Virus record (IMG/VR): IMGVR_UViG_3300028293_000003
Coordinates: 1-32,619 of that record
DNA length: 32,619 bases
DNA from: a virus
Lineage: Duplodnaviria > Caudoviricetes
Strand: one strand, 5' to 3'
Shown here: positions 14,880 to 23,223 of the stretch, piece after piece
Layout of the letters: each line of letters begins with the position of its first letter
Position numbering within the stretch: the first letter of the stretch is position 1
Made by a program: the position numbers and the translations under genes
The notes under the pieces: generated by a model
The model's database searches: none
What the model was told of the DNA's origin: nothing
What the model saw: only the letters and a program-made list of their open reading frames with translations

Positions 14880-15317
14880 ATGAGTATTGATATAGATTCA
14901 GTAAAGGCATGGATTAAAAAATGTGAAGGTTTTAAAGATATGCCTTATTTAGATTCAGTTAGAAAATTAACAATAGGATTTGGCAGAAACCTTCAAGATA
15001 ATGGTATATCAATTGAAGAAGCAGATTATATGCTTTCTAATGACATAAATCGTTCAATTAAAGAACTTGAGCAATATAGCTGGTATTTGATGCAGCCAGA
15101 TTCAGTCAAAGCCGCACTCATTAATATGAATTTCAATTTAGGATTATCGCGTCTACTTACTTTTAGGAAAATGATTGATGCTTTAATTAATAGAAATTAT
15201 ACCATTGCTTCTAAAGAAGCATTAGAGAGTGATTGGTCTAAACAAGTAGGTGATAGAGCTAAGGATGTAGCTTTAATGATTCGCGAGGGAAGCGATGCTG
15301 AGACCGGAAGAAATTGA
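14880..15317 (+). CDS. Lysozyme/endolysin, T4-type GH24
   Basis: Catalytic E-x8-D-x5-T (CEGFKDMPYLDSVRKLTIGFG), 'LINMNFNLG', 'SDWSKQVGDRA'. Confidence 0.9.
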   Translation: MSIDIDSVKAWIKKCEGFKDMPYLDSVRKLTIGFGRNLQDNGISIEEADYMLSNDINRSIKELEQYSWYLMQPDSVKAALINMNFNLGLSRLLTFRKMIDALINRNYTIASKEALESDWSKQVGDRAKDVALMIREGSDAETGRN

Positions 15318-18345: not shown

Positions 18346-19209
18346 CTATTCCTTATCAGGGCATTTACTTAATATCCCAATGAAATCTTGGGCTTGAGAG
18401 CTCGTTAAATCTACAAGCTTTTCAACCTTATAATGTTCCAAAGCACCTTTCAGTCGTGCGCCATCAAAAACCTTTACAGCTAAAAGAGCATGTATTTCTT
18501 CGAGATCGTCTGATGTAGCCAATTCGCCTGTTTCATTTGATTCAGATGGATTGATTTCTATGATTTGTCCTTTGGCTGCTTTAAGCTTGCCCATTAATTC
18601 TTGTGATTTAGATTCTTTTCTGCTTGGTTCTCCTGAAGAATTCTCTGACATTTCTTCTTCACCATATGTTCCGCCAAGCAAGTCTTGAAAGCACGCTCTT
18701 AAGCATTGTGACTCTGCTACTTTCTTAATCATAGTTGCAGGTTTGCCTGTCTGAGGATTCCATAGGCTTTTGCCAGTAGAGTATTCTCTGAGTTCAGCAA
18801 ATACATAAAGAGGGCGTGATGATTTATGACGTTTTGCAATACAATATGCGCCTATTAATGCGCCTCTATTTGTCAATGTATATGCATGACGTACTTCACC
18901 ATTAACGACCTCAAATTTGTCATTCTCGTACACTGCATCAGATTGATGATAATCGTATTCACTGTGAGCTTGAGCTGCTTTTCTGTAACCATCTCGTCCA
19001 ATAAAGACTTGTGCAGGTCGCTCATCGTACTTTACTGACCATATTTCCCTTAGAAAGGGATTCAAAGATGCAGATTTACCTATTCCTATAAAATATTGAA
19101 ATTCCAAGTCAGTTAATTTAGGAGCAAATAATTTTCTAATTTCTTCTAGCTTTTTATTATCTTCCCACATGGTCAAACTACTGTTTAAAGTTGTTAATGA
19201 ATTACTCAT
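18346..19209 (-). CDS. bet: Single-strand annealing recombinase, Bet/RecT family
   Basis: 'LNPFLREIWSVKY...IGRDGYRKAA', 'GAYCIAKR', 'W...PATMIKKVAESQCLRACF...GTYGEEEM'. Confidence 0.9.
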   Translation of the reverse strand: MSNSLTTLNSSLTMWEDNKKLEEIRKLFAPKLTDLEFQYFIGIGKSASLNPFLREIWSVKYDERPAQVFIGRDGYRKAAQAHSEYDYHQSDAVYENDKFEVVNGEVRHAYTLTNRGALIGAYCIAKRHKSSRPLYVFAELREYSTGKSLWNPQTGKPATMIKKVAESQCLRACFQDLLGGTYGEEEMSENSSGEPSRKESKSQELMGKLKAAKGQIIEINPSESNETGELATSDDLEEIHALLAVKVFDGARLKGALEHYKVEKLVDLTSSQAQDFIGILSKCPDKE

Positions 19210-20036
19210 TATTCTTTCTCCTCGGTTAAGGTTGCATATTTAGGAATGCTTAACTCTTGTACAGAATATCCTGGCCATTTTCCAGAATCAAAGCAAGCCT
19301 TTAATTTTCTTTTATACGTATTAAATTGCTCTACACCAAACTTCAAAGCTTCATCGTCCATCATAAATACCGCAGGAACATGAGGCGCTTCTTTTTCACA
19401 AGCCAATATGACAAACATGTCAAAAGGCTTACCTAATGCTTTACATCCTTCATATGCCATACCTGCTTGAATGAAATATCCATAATTCAAAGCAGAACGG
19501 CTGAAGTTAAATGAATTGGCATCACAAGTTGTTTTTAGGTCGACAACCATTTTTGATGACCAAATATCAGGTCTTGTTTTGAACTGAAGTCCTGTTTCTT
19601 TATCGGTCCAAAATATAGACTTCTCGAACAAAGCTTCATCTAAAAGAGTTTGAACTATTTCATGTTCTCTTATCTGTTCTGCCATAGTCTTTGCTTTATC
19701 GAAATATTCGTCGGTAATTACCGTTCTTTTTCCAATGCATGATTGAAATATTTCCCAGTCCTCTTTACCTTTCGTCGTTCTTCTATCGATTCGAGGAGAA
19801 AGAATGTATTCGGAGTCAAACTTATCTGGCTCTAACAAAAGAGTATGGAATAGTGAACCAATAATCATTGATGGTGTTGGTTCTTTTTTTTGAGCTTTTC
19901 CAGAGATTGCTTCATACCAAAAGTGATAAGGGCTTTTATCTAAAAGCATTAATTTGCTTCGTGAAATGCCATCAGAGCCATGATATTCGTCATTAGAAAT
20001 GTCATAAACCCCGTCATTAAAATAAGTTTTACTCAC
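19209..20036 (-). CDS. PD-(D/E)XK exonuclease (RecE/ExoVIII C-terminal-like)
   Basis: 'ISNDEYH...ISRSKL...SPYHF', 'GSLFHTLLLEP', 'KTRPDIW...VVDLKTT', 'YFIQAGMAY'; coupled to bet. Confidence 0.9.
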   Translation of the reverse strand: MSKTYFNDGVYDISNDEYHGSDGISRSKLMLLDKSPYHFWYEAISGKAQKKEPTPSMIIGSLFHTLLLEPDKFDSEYILSPRIDRRTTKGKEDWEIFQSCIGKRTVITDEYFDKAKTMAEQIREHEIVQTLLDEALFEKSIFWTDKETGLQFKTRPDIWSSKMVVDLKTTCDANSFNFSRSALNYGYFIQAGMAYEGCKALGKPFDMFVILACEKEAPHVPAVFMMDDEALKFGVEQFNTYKRKLKACFDSGKWPGYSVQELSIPKYATLTEEKE

Positions 20037-20064
20037 GATAAACTCCTTTGTTTATATAGTTAAT

Positions 20065-20138
20065 ATTATTACAAATATTTGTAATGCTGTCAACAGAATA
20101 TTACAAGTGTTGTACCCTGTCAAGCTTTGTAATATACT
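20065..20138. promoter_or_regulatory. Divergent early promoters with palindromic operators
   Basis: Leftward TTGACA(20093-20088)-17-AATAAT with TG extension; rightward TTGTAC(20110)-17-TATACT(20133); palindromes at 20068-20085, 20102-20114 and 20119-20131. Confidence 0.75.
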
Positions 20139-20162
20139 TGTCAAAAAAATAGAGGAGAAAAT

Positions 20163-20351
20163 ATGAAACCGAAAGAAGTGAGAAGATATTTTAAATCCCA
20201 GTATAATTTTCATAAGGTTACCGGAATGTCTGCTGCATCTCTTGGAAACTGGCTTAAATGGGGGTTTGTTCCCATTCTTTCCCAGCTTAAGCTTGAGAAA
20301 ATTACTAACGGGGAATTGAAAGCAGAATGGAAAAATGGGGAATTAAAATAA
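20163..20351 (+). CDS. Cro-like HTH regulator
   Basis: GAGGAG SD; 'YFKSQYNFHKVTGMSAASLGNWLKWGFVP...QLKLEKITNGELKA' is a Cro/YdaS-like pattern; first gene of the rightward unit. Confidence 0.8.
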   Translation: MKPKEVRRYFKSQYNFHKVTGMSAASLGNWLKWGFVPILSQLKLEKITNGELKAEWKNGELK

Positions 20352-20364
20352 AAAGGAGAAAAAA

Positions 20365-20682
20365 GTGGAAATAGAAGGATTAATTAATCACACCTTAGCA
20401 TCAGCAATTCTAGAAAGAAATTTCATCGCTCAAAGGATGGTTGCAAATAAAGAGCATATAACTTTCTGGAACTCAGTAAAGAAGATTCACACCAACGAAG
20501 ATATCCGTAGCAAACTAGAGAATATCACTCATATCAGGCAGATTCTTGGCTCTGAAGAGTATATGGAATATATGATTCAACAAGACCCAGAAGATCCTCT
20601 GGAGTATCTAGGCATTCCTCTAAAAACCATCGAATTTTACATTCATTTGCGCGATTCGCTAGAGACTAAAACAATTTTTTGA
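20365..20682 (+). CDS. Hypothetical protein
   Basis: AAGGAG SD, GTG start. Confidence 0.65.
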   Translation: MEIEGLINHTLASAILERNFIAQRMVANKEHITFWNSVKKIHTNEDIRSKLENITHIRQILGSEEYMEYMIQQDPEDPLEYLGIPLKTIEFYIHLRDSLETKTIF

Positions 20683-20684
20683 AG

Positions 20685-20778
20685 TAAGATGACCGAAGAT
20701 ACTAGTCTTGACCTAATATCTTCGGCTGGCGAAAGCCATTGACAGTTACATCACACAACCATAAGACTTGATGCAACT
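20685..20778 (-). ncRNA. Predicted antisense structured sRNA 1
   Basis: Leftward TTGCTT-17-TACAAT promoter (20813-20785); three stems; two A.C mismatches on the + strand are G.U pairs on the - strand. Confidence 0.55.
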
Positions 20779-20823
20779 AAAGATATTGTAATGTCAGGAA
20801 GATAAAAAAGCAAAGGAGAATCT

Positions 20824-21027
20824 ATGTCTATAGATATAAATGCAAAATCTGTTGAACTCTTAAGTCTATTAGCAAACTCTATCTACGATCGCAGTAATGT
20901 TTTACAATCGTTACCATTCACTTTTAGACCAGAAGAATTAAGTATTGTTGAACAATGGCTGAAAGAAATTTTGCAAGACCCATTCAAAATAAGAGAGAAT
21001 ATAGAAAGCCCGAAAGTGGAGTACTGA
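20824..21027 (+). CDS. Hypothetical protein
   Basis: AAGGAG SD. Confidence 0.65.
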   Translation: MSIDINAKSVELLSLLANSIYDRSNVLQSLPFTFRPEELSIVEQWLKEILQDPFKIRENIESPKVEY

Positions 21028-21073
21028 TCGGGCTTTTTACTATAACAAGGAAGATAAAATGAAACTACAATGC
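21003..21073 (-). ncRNA. Predicted antisense sRNA 2
   Basis: Perfect leftward extended -10 TGTTATAAT (21088-21080); would end at the 21005-21036 hairpin. Confidence 0.45.
21005..21038. terminator. Probable bidirectional terminator
   Basis: AAAGCCCGA...TCGGGCTTTTT. Confidence 0.65.
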
Positions 21074-21087
21074 AAGAGGATTATAAC

Positions 21088-21318
21088 ATGAATATAAATA
21101 CAGATGATATATATTGGCATTATTTTTCTATATCTGAATTACTAAGGGAATATAAATTATATCCAGATATATCAGTAAAAAATCTTTTTGAAACAGTCCC
21201 ATTTGGAATCGTAAAAAAATCCTTAATATTAGGAAATTCTACACCTATATGTGATTGGGTCATGGAATATTTTGGATTTGAATATGATAACGAAAAAGAT
21301 GGTTGGATTAAAAAGTGA
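21088..21318 (+). CDS. Hypothetical protein (start more likely 21088 than 21070)
   Basis: GAGG SD 8 nt before ATG 21088. Confidence 0.55.
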   Translation: MNINTDDIYWHYFSISELLREYKLYPDISVKNLFETVPFGIVKKSLILGNSTPICDWVMEYFGFEYDNEKDGWIKK

Positions 21319-21408
21319 ATAAAATTTAGGGCATCCAGCCCCAAGTCCTCGAATCAACTGCAATCGATTTTGAGGGTACATCCTTAACGCTCTAGCGGAG
21401 CAAATAAC
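21318..21408 (-). ncRNA. Predicted antisense sRNA 3 over the rep leader
   Basis: Perfect leftward extended -10 TGGTATAAT (21423-21415); G.U-containing stems on the - strand; terminal hairpin UUGGGGC/GCCCUAA followed by AUUUU. Confidence 0.55.
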
Positions 21409-21422
21409 GAGGTCATTATACC

Positions 21423-22298
21423 ATGTCAGATCACACAAGCAACCCCCGTGAATTATCTTATCGTGCATGCATTCCATTTCACATTCTTTGGGATACCGAT
21501 TTAAACGCAAATCATCTTCGTTTTTACGGCCAAATCGAGCAGATGGAAAACCATCCTAGTGAAAAAGTTCAGCCCACATTTTCTTATCAATGGATTGCCG
21601 ATATTTTAAAAATTAATAGACGTAATGCAATTAAAATAGGCAATTTATTAAAGAAAAAAGGATACATTAAAAGAGAAGTAATTGGACCAAATGAATACAT
21701 ATGGAACACGGTAAAAAAAGGTGTGGTAGTGTCACAGGAAGACACTAGACTAGTGTCGCACAAAGACACCCCCCTAGTGTCTCCCAGAGACACCCAAAAT
21801 AGAAAGAAAGAAACTAAAGTCTATAAAAGAACTACTACTAGGGAAAAAGACCAGAGTAGTAGTAGTTTTTTTTCTTTAAATCAAAAAGAAGAATTCTTAA
21901 AACTAAAACTAGAATCAGATACCCGTTCTGATGAGCTTTTCATTTCTCACTGCCAATGGCATATTGAAAAGCAAACCAACGATTTCCCTAAGTACAAACG
22001 AATAAGGGGATTATTAAAGCTTCTTAGAGCACTTAATGAAGCCGGAGAGGCATTTAAATCCACAGGATATGTTGACTTGGAGGAAAAAAAGAAAGCTGAT
22101 GAAGAAAGAGCAAAACAAGAAATAAAAAATCGCTACGATCGGTACAAAAGCGTTTTCTTAAATGACAGGGATAGACTTAAAATTGCTAGAGTGCAAGGAA
22201 GAGAGCCTATGATATTCGATGAATGGCTTCTTTCCGACGAAAATAAAGAAAAAGGATTTCAATATGAGGACCAGAGAAGAATGCAAGCAGTTGCTTAA
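21423..22298 (+). CDS. Replication initiator (lambda O-like layout, N-terminal winged HTH)
   Basis: 'IPFHILWDTDL...FYGQI...FSYQWIADILKINRRNAIKIGNLLKKKGYI' HTH; internal iterons followed by an A-rich tract. Confidence 0.8.
   Translation: MSDHTSNPRELSYRACIPFHILWDTDLNANHLRFYGQIEQMENHPSEKVQPTFSYQWIADILKINRRNAIKIGNLLKKKGYIKREVIGPNEYIWNTVKKGVVVSQEDTRLVSHKDTPLVSPRDTQNRKKETKVYKRTTTREKDQSSSSFFSLNQKEEFLKLKLESDTRSDELFISHCQWHIEKQTNDFPKYKRIRGLLKLLRALNEAGEAFKSTGYVDLEEKKKADEERAKQEIKNRYDRYKSVFLNDRDRLKIARVQGREPMIFDEWLLSDENKEKGFQYEDQRRMQAVA
21727..21870. repeat. Replication origin: three iterons plus A-rich tract and inverted repeat
   Basis: TAGTGTC-N7-GACAC at 21727, 21751 and 21775 (24-bp period); AACTACTACTA/TAGTAGTAGTT at 21830-21867. 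Confidence 0.8.
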
Positions 22299-22579: not shown

Positions 22580-22777
22580 ATGCTAGAAGGAACTGTGAAG
22601 TGGTTTAATGAAAAAAAGGGGTTTGGATTCATAGAAAGCGAACATAAAGATTATTTTGTTTACTTTAAAGAAATCAAAATGGATGGCTACAAGAAATTGG
22701 CTGAAGGACAGAAAGTAAGTTTTGAAGCAGCCCTTTCCGATAAAGGGCCACTCGCTAAGAATGTAACCGTCTTGTAA
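22580..22777 (+). CDS. csp: Cold-shock domain protein (CspA family)
   Basis: GTVKWFN, RNP1 KGFGFI, RNP2-like YFVYF, '[13 protein letters not shown]', 'KGPLAKNV'. Confidence 0.95.
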
Positions 22778-23157: not shown

Positions 23158-23186
23158 TGCTATCTCCTGTTAATTGATACATTTTT

Positions 23187-23223
23187 ATTATTACAATGAT
23201 TGTAATATATGTCAATAGTTGTA
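23187..23223 (-). promoter_or_regulatory. Leftward promoter TTGACA-17-AATAAT (TG-extended) with two operator-like palindromes
   Basis: Same layout as the promoter at 20065-20093; TACAA-TGA-TTGTA at 23192-23204 and GTCAA-TAG-TTGTA at 23211-23223. Confidence 0.75.

Follow-up and report, generated by a model that had tools for sequence, protein, structure and literature searches.

Leftward promoter sequences and predicted antisense RNAs in the early operon of a CI-less phage related to Legionella Mobile Element-1

Described antisense systems and the phage locus

In CopA/CopT, the IncB/IncI Inc RNA, pT181/pIP501 and the repABC ctRNA, as predicted for the locus described here, a short counter-transcript lies ahead of the initiator gene, according to the portions of PMC4485353, PMC5415839 and PMC3155836 available to us. 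The excerpts of PMC4485353 also give a YUNR loop on one partner as a mark of loop-loop antisense pairs. The OOP RNA of phage lambda, in the available parts of PMC5869508 and PMC12197685, is made from a leftward promoter in the early region and ends in a hairpin over the 3' end of the upstream gene. For CsrA, the accessible text of PMC7652899 and PMC5338858 gives the consensus RUACARGGAUGU and A(N)GGA. LME-1, short for Legionella Mobile Element-1, integrates at dif via host XerL and its episome exceeds 200 copies, as far as the source excerpts go. In the portion of PMC12407071 at hand, integration splits repO and thereby limits replication, neither mitomycin C nor UV induces the element, and no regulator is described.

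The window analyzed here is the stretch of 32,619 nucleotides in IMG/VR record IMGVR_UViG_3300028293_000003, a complete viral record of 32.6 kb with terminal repeats and P22-like structural genes (portal, terminase, capsid). Its leftward operon consists of exonuclease VIII (the first gene, 19209..20036, minus strand), RecT and helicase, and its rightward operon of a Cro-like gene, three small ORFs, a likely initiator gene and cspA. The Cro-like regulator (20163..20351, plus strand; P22_Cro, E 8e-6, below cut-off; phrog_409) is the only helix-turn-helix regulator found in the window. It is followed on the plus strand by a 105-aa ORF (20365..20682) matching no family, a 67-aa gene (20824..21027), a variable 76-aa ORF (21088..21318) also matching no family, and the likely replication initiator gene, rep (21423..22298), which has weak PHROG matches (E 4e-4 and 6e-3) and HTH matches in its homologues. 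We refer to the three intergenic spaces between the 105-aa ORF and rep as gaps 1 to 3. A search of the complete record, with working controls, found no tyrosine integrase, ParA, HTH_3 or S24 peptidase, and so bears out an earlier interpretation made from the letters alone (hereafter the sequence-only reading) in its claim that no CI gene, of the HTH_3 or S24 peptidase type, is present.

Several other features surround these genes. Palindromes of the form ATTACAA...TTGTAAT overlap TTGACA promoters in the exo/cro gap (20060-20150) and recur at 23185-23215, before a leftward 73-aa gene; judged by their sequence they are likely Cro operators. In this window only, a half site of the same palindrome overlaps the gap-1 -10 (20786). 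Inside rep, three 19-nt repeats with 24-nt spacing (21727-21793) form an inverted pair and are followed by a 16-nt inverted repeat and an A/T tract (21825-21872), a cluster that is likely the origin. The cspA gene (22580-22777), encoding a cold-shock RNA chaperone, stands directly after rep in most close relatives, and the phage-borne chaperone could act on the gap RNA structures.

The window had no DNA match to annotated phages; its rep protein retrieved zero viral loci as a query, and a genome scan gave a single distant match in a gut bacterium. Its DNA recurs in other sequencing runs, as a comparison with four DNA runs showed. More than one fifth of its words are contained in 18 runs (all DNA, 17 from soil), and no RNA run was among the 24 listed. 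Against LME-1, the window matches in the exonuclease (52% identity), the Cro-like protein (36%) and three other small matches, with no match among structural genes. One relative (L015) also matches LME-1 and has proteins named as Legionella pneumophila. Because of the relatedness to LME-1 and the dif-like sites in relatives, we infer a host in the Legionellales.

Loci of relatives were gathered by protein and by motif. Among 135 loci screened, 84 had the 67-aa gene and 46 of these were distinct, a set that includes loci first found via the gap-2 pattern and is hence not fully unselected. The gap-1 set consists of 19 members among the 46, picked by eye with the degenerate locus L089 excluded, and the members of the gap-2 (24) and gap-3 (28) alignments were chosen by their motifs. 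The counts below overstate the number of independent events because the relatives share descent. Across relatives, the gaps are better conserved than the flanking genes.

Leftward promoters and the three gap elements

The three leftward promoter sequences put forward in the sequence-only reading were confirmed on the minus strand. They read TTGCTT(20813-20808)-17-TACAAT(20790-20785) in gap 1 (sigma70-type, 20785..20813, predicted start 20778), TGTTATAAT at 21088-21080 in gap 2 (extended -10, 21080..21088, predicted start 21073) and TGGTATAAT at 21423-21415 in gap 3. The gap-3 promoter (21415..21442) combines an extended -10 with TTGCTT at 16 bp over the rep start codon, and its predicted start, 21408, falls just left of the rep Shine-Dalgarno sequence (SD). 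All three overlap SD/start regions. The perfect TGnTATAAT motif occurs three times in the whole window, twice in these gaps; the third, on the minus strand at 15196-15204, lies inside the endolysin gene. A generic promoter scan listed none of the three and showed no regional excess (24 versus 26.7 in shuffles), and because that scan was uninformative, the case for the promoters rests on conservation.

In gap 1, a TTG-16/18-TAnnnT promoter was present at 17 of 19 loci with the gap-1 motif, versus 1 of 25 loci without it, and the -10 varied in its middle bases across relatives while T, A and T stayed constant. Transcription starts follow a pyrimidine-purine rule. An extended -10 with a pyrimidine-purine start, 30-125 nt past the stop codon, was found in gap 2 at 27 of 42 loci versus 11% of random windows; it was retained in two loci (L164 and L165) where the ATG of the gap's small reading frame was lost. 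Over the start codon after gap 3, TGnTAnnnT occurred at 27 of 30 loci with a detected hairpin and a downstream ORF (16 further loci, with the hairpin out of range or no ORF, were left out). In the three misses the script had chosen an upstream ATG, and a later ATG does show the signature. It also turned up at 12 of 155 control starts; by sequence every one of these belongs to gap 2 or gap 3, and the other 143 gave 0. The predicted gap-3 start was pyrimidine-purine in 28 of 28.

A further search for the gap-3 motif gave 84 distinct matches, of which 69 with G+C of at least 45% were discarded as likely chance. Among the 15 kept, 13 had the stem and 12 of these the promoter, the remaining one being truncated by a contig end; new members from this later search carried the promoter in 4 of 4 cases. 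What follows the motif is one of several unrelated initiator genes or, at some loci, a gene of 80 aa. The initiator gene itself has been swapped among several unrelated families with the gap-3 motif and promoter retained, and initiator residues 6-7 are N/K-rich in most relatives, as a leftward -35 would require. The sequence-only reading had staked its proposal on promoters and stems being conserved in relatives, and both are. Conserved signatures, together with the gap-1 covariation described below, support leftward promoters and antisense RNAs well, and we consider it very probable from their sequences that the promoters are active.

The predicted antisense RNA 1 (20692..20778, minus strand, ~87-94 nt) comprises the stems P3 (20744-20778), P2 (20727-20738) and P1 (20692-20726). 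Its motif was present in 19 of 46 loci and missing in 25 of 44; a covariance model detected it in 14 of 26 records. In a plain sequence alignment uncorrected for relatedness, 23 of 30 named pairs changed two-sidedly, as in 0 of 500 shuffles, and paired cells amounted to 79%, compared with 64% for shuffles and 23-43% for slid controls. The window's own gap 1 folds with z-scores of -5.75 (minus) and -4.07 (plus). The minus strand had the lower z-score in 18 of 19 members and the lower energy in 15 of 19. On the sense strand, 18 of 19 members have YUNR in the 7-nt P1 loop (20706-20712 in the window), which takes 15 different sequences, compared with 5 of 19 on the antisense strand and a background of 25% per strand; the P2 loop (20731-20734) is GNRA in 17 of 19. 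By these comparisons the gap-1 RNA folds into three covarying hairpins and is under selection on the sense as well as the antisense strand. A candidate rightward -10 hexamer immediately 5' of P1 (20685..20690, plus strand) reads TAnnnT in 17 of 19, with a poor -35 in the window, and is a predicted convergent sense promoter.

We found no covarying sense partner for the P1 loop within 900 nt downstream (the cognate was best in 2 of 18), and masking the RNA 1 region altered predicted SD accessibility little and in both directions, which gives no sign of an SD switch on RNA 1 binding. By eye, pairing of the P3 loop with the upstream GGA region was seen in about six close relatives only. U-tails are poor in both gap 1 (9 of 19) and gap 3 (12 of 26), so the 3' ends of RNAs 1 and 3 are uncertain.

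Between gaps 1 and 2, the 67-aa gene encodes a conserved helix-loop-helix protein of 55-69 aa that matches no family and is predicted to form two soluble helices. It had no fold match in the Atlas, the PDB or viral folds, and on that ground a Rop-like or CII-like identity was rejected. At the end of the 67-aa gene is a bidirectional terminator-like hairpin (21005..21038), whose inner loop is a conserved UGGA(G) on the sense strand; in the aligned loci the A-tract is kept in 23 of 24 and the T-tract in 22 of 24. The predicted antisense RNA 2 (21003..21073, minus strand, ~70 nt) has an unpaired 5' part of ~37 nt spanning an SD (21047-21053) and the start of a 10-codon mini-ORF (21059-21091), and a 3' hairpin covering the 67-aa gene's end. 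This SD and mini-ORF unit (21047..21091, plus strand) ends in a stop that overlaps the next ATG; SD and ATG were conserved in 28 of 42 loci with peptide sequence and frame variable. The window's gap 2 folds at z -4.0 (minus) and -4.48 (plus). By these features, gap 2 consists of a single bidirectional terminator and a mini-ORF.

The predicted antisense RNA 3 (21316..21408, minus strand, ~85-93 nt) consists of a small hairpin, a linker A(N)GGAUGU (21385-21378), a variable stem-loop (21347-21375) and a terminal hairpin (21344-21326) with GGA in its loop; given the poor gap-3 U-tails, it may run on to the gap-2 hairpin. The middle stem, 25-35 nt long, had a z-score below -2 in 23 of 25. For the gap as a whole the z-score was better on the plus strand in 26 of 28, with the window at -2.0 (minus) and -1.4 (plus). 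The gap-3 loop is YUNR on either strand in 18 of 26, versus 43% background, with 18 distinct loops among the 26; the window's own loop is not YUNR. Scanning with a gap-3 covariance model gave the motif in 20 of 26 records, the majority of which had served to train it, and covariance model R2 detected nothing when applied to the LME-1 element. Near the gathering score, Rfam gave no match in the window, nor in 13 relatives besides sub-threshold cspA matches; gaps 1 and 3 are two structured RNA motifs without an Rfam match.

These results change several details of the sequence-only reading, which had seen one repeated unit with 70-95 nt of stems in each gap. The gaps are three different elements that share only the promoter arrangement, with no common sequence or fold, and the stem description fails for gap 2, with its unpaired stretch, single hairpin and plus-strand mini-ORF. 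The argument that mismatches on one strand become G-U pairs on the other holds for gap 1, where P1 has 26 A.C versus 5 G.T cells and so favours the antisense fold, but not for gap 3 across relatives, where the middle stem was better on the minus strand in 11 and on the plus strand in 11 of 26. The sense-strand U-turn, the GNRA loop, the mini-ORF and the CsrA-like GGA sites are additions to that reading.

Proposed regulation and competing explanations

In our best explanation, each gap's leftward promoter sequence is the likely source of a different short cis-antisense RNA. By pairing with the early mRNA, these RNAs would reduce expression from the 67-aa gene, from the gene coupled to the mini-ORF and from the likely initiator gene. 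RNAs 1 and 3 would meet the mRNA by loop-loop kissing, as in plasmid copy control, in which case specificity (incompatibility or superinfection groups) would lie in their variable loops. In RNA 2, the unpaired 5' tail would cover the site where ribosomes load on the mini-ORF, and the RNA would also reach over the end of the gene upstream, in the manner of lambda OOP. Duplex cleavage and polarity would be the likely result, along with interference from polymerase bound over start codons; the SD would not be masked directly, because RNAs 1 and 3 begin left of it. Less certainly, binding of host CsrA to GGA sites on RNA 3 and the sense leaders would tie the circuit to host growth phase. In the aligned relatives the promoter signatures are conserved, the stems covary and the variable loops are of the U-turn type, and loop kissing and the action of RNA 2 are the steps we infer. 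Overall, we find it reasonably probable that the antisense RNAs regulate the sense message. This would add a plasmid-like antisense layer and two motifs unmatched in Rfam to the LME-1-related family, in which LME-1 is the single relative in culture, and would offer an answer to how CI-less phages stay quiet, with a possible growth-phase link from CsrA to phage development.

The position of all three promoters over SD/start regions, together with the weak U-tails, would suit promoters that act mainly by transcription interference, in which polymerase occupies or traverses the start regions, with the RNAs as by-products and the stems as sense attenuators or processing signals. The GNRA and terminator loops are sense features, and the gap-3 z-scores favour the sense strand. 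However, the gap-1 stems are better kept on the antisense strand, gap 3 has GGA sites on the antisense strand only, and hypervariable U-turn loops would have no role under pure interference, which we consider unlikely as the main mode of action.

Regulation by the antisense RNAs could involve host CsrA, for which candidate sites lie on both strands. The RNA 3 linker reads A(N)GGA in 27 of 28 (N being A, G or U) and GGAUGU in 21 of 28; its loop has GGA in 25 of 26, preceded by U in 22 of 26 so that the A is mostly missing, in a set partly selected on the GGA letters though not on the A. One relative (L014) retains the gap-3 hairpins without either GGA. On the sense strand, 13 of 24 mini-ORF SDs read GGAnGU, compared with 17 of 274 control starts. 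Two weakly CsrA-like GGA sites 18 nt apart, the second within the SD of the 67-aa gene, stand in tandem at 20795..20818 (plus strand), and such a tandem was found ahead of the 67-aa gene in 31 of 40 leaders, compared with 124 of 274 control starts. By eye, LME-1 and L009 both show, upstream of rep, an antisense-strand hexaloop of the form C-AUGGAN-G (C-AUGGAU-G in LME-1), and the rep start of LME-1 lies under a leftward TTGTTC-17-TATAAT. The LME-1 rep leader (L172, 29551-29707) also contains three CAAGGAG repeats resembling CsrA sites. No phage-encoded CsrA was found (0 of 26 records). The paper listings searched showed no comparable CsrA/antisense case, and the word CsrA has a count of 0 in PMC12197685 and PMC12407071. 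From the site sequences, we lean slightly towards host CsrA binding at least one candidate site.

The same sites raise the question of whether RNA 3 is chiefly a small CsrA sponge that would relieve CsrA repression of early genes and lead to lytic growth. Its two antisense-strand sites, the sense-leader GGA sites in gaps 1 and 2, the missing phage CsrA gene and a start left of the rep SD all fit, but known sponges are many-sited (22 GGA in CsrB, in the available part of PMC7652899), and RNA 3 stays with the rep leader, its loop being variable as a sponge would not need. We regard this as quite unlikely. Compatible with antisense regulation of the message, gaps 1 and 2 might form a unit like a type I toxin-antitoxin or immunity system, with RNAs 1 and 2 as antitoxins flanking a gene that has its own rightward -10 and a structured leader ahead of it and a terminator directly 3' of it. 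The predicted two soluble helices of the 67-aa protein match no toxin fold and the gene occurs without gap 1 in 25 of 44 loci, making such a unit very unlikely. In P4 CI and P1 C4 a sense RNA acts in trans on targets in the same transcript, and a processed RNA of this type is extremely improbable here despite a sense multi-stem element with a GNRA loop in the early operon, given the dedicated leftward promoter, the lack of an Rfam C4 match in the window and 13 relatives, and the lack of a covarying target within 900 nt.

A dif-like palindrome, close to the LME-1 att site, occurs in 17 of 26 records (17 of 25 relatives; reversed control 0) and is absent from the window. It lies at 11590 in L002, 12487 in L003, 10001 in L007, 11749 in L010, 11064 in L016 and 10875 in L052; in L002, L003, L010 and L052 it is beyond the helicase gene and outside rep, and in L009 inside rep. 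An integrase was found in 0 of 25 relatives, and HTH_3 scored above cut-off in none of the records, with 4 weak matches. The relatives are likely, by these sequences, a broad family of Xer-integrating Legionellales phages. In three of them (L012, L016 and L011), several Cro-like genes and a MerR/excisionase-like HTH gene replace gaps 1-2. An att site outside rep would leave rep whole in the prophage, so another brake would be needed. The three elements would serve not only lysogeny, because the window keeps all of them without a dif-like site.

One could go further and see antisense RNAs and CsrA together as the main developmental switch of Legionellales phages without CI or integrase. Constitutive antisense RNAs with strain-specific kissing loops would silence the early operon and define immunity groups, host CsrA would be a borrowed repressor that binds sense leaders and stabilizes the anti-rep RNA, and host Rsm RNAs would remove CsrA at the end of replicative growth, leading to phage release. 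If true, it would fill in the trigger, independent of SOS, that is undefined for LME-1. The Cro-like protein, a candidate repressor, with its operator-like palindromes, likely Xer/dif integration in relatives and rep splitting in LME-1 leave the switch unproven, and with it the main control over lytic commitment suggested in the sequence-only reading, and we consider it doubtful.

Comparison with known systems

Plasmid copy-control RNAs, as far as the source excerpts describe them, share with the gap RNAs a YUNR recognition loop on one partner, an irregular upper stem and a variable loop. As with CopA, a promoter signature on the opposite strand lies in the initiator leader, and a stem-loop with a variable YUNR loop is present in gap 1 and, more weakly, in gap 3. 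In three relatives (L056, L064 and L069) the loop is UUGGCG, identical to the loop of CopT and ColIb-P9. No pseudoknot partner, induced terminator or SD switch of the plasmid type was found in the gaps, and for a downstream partner like that of IncB/IncI, the cognate of the gap-1 loop did no better than non-cognates. Unlike the plasmid RNAs, the elements stand three in series in a P22-like phage, lack an Rfam match and have antisense GGA sites.

RNA 2 shares the promoter and hairpin-overlap geometry of lambda OOP, and RNA 3 shares its position next to the initiator start in the lambda gene order. In contrast to lambda, neither CII nor CI was found here and there is no sequence match; the overlap of RNA 2 with the upstream gene is ~23 nt in the window and in many relatives takes in only that gene's terminator, whereas OOP overlaps by 52 nt. 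That upstream gene is no counterpart of cII, the 67-aa protein having no CII match. The A(N)GGA/GGAUGU linker and hairpin-loop GGA of RNA 3 resemble those of the Csr/Rsm RNAs (CsrB, RsmY/Z) and CsrA-repressed leaders, as described in the available parts of PMC7652899 and PMC5338858; RNA 3 differs in having two sites only, a loop site mostly without the A, and a phage-encoded cis-antisense origin.

LME-1 is alike in its lack of an integrase, its leftward promoter over the rep start and its antisense GGA hairpin. It differs in that its att site splits rep, and on reading its early region neither a gap-1 nor a gap-2 element was seen. The 17 of 25 relatives with dif-like sites group with the IMEX (dif/Xer) elements and the window, without such a site, does not; with neither an Rfam C4 match nor a covarying target, it also stands apart from P1/P7 C4 and P4 CI. 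By analogy, the elements most likely work in the manner of plasmid antisense copy control and of OOP, and fall outside every family compared here.
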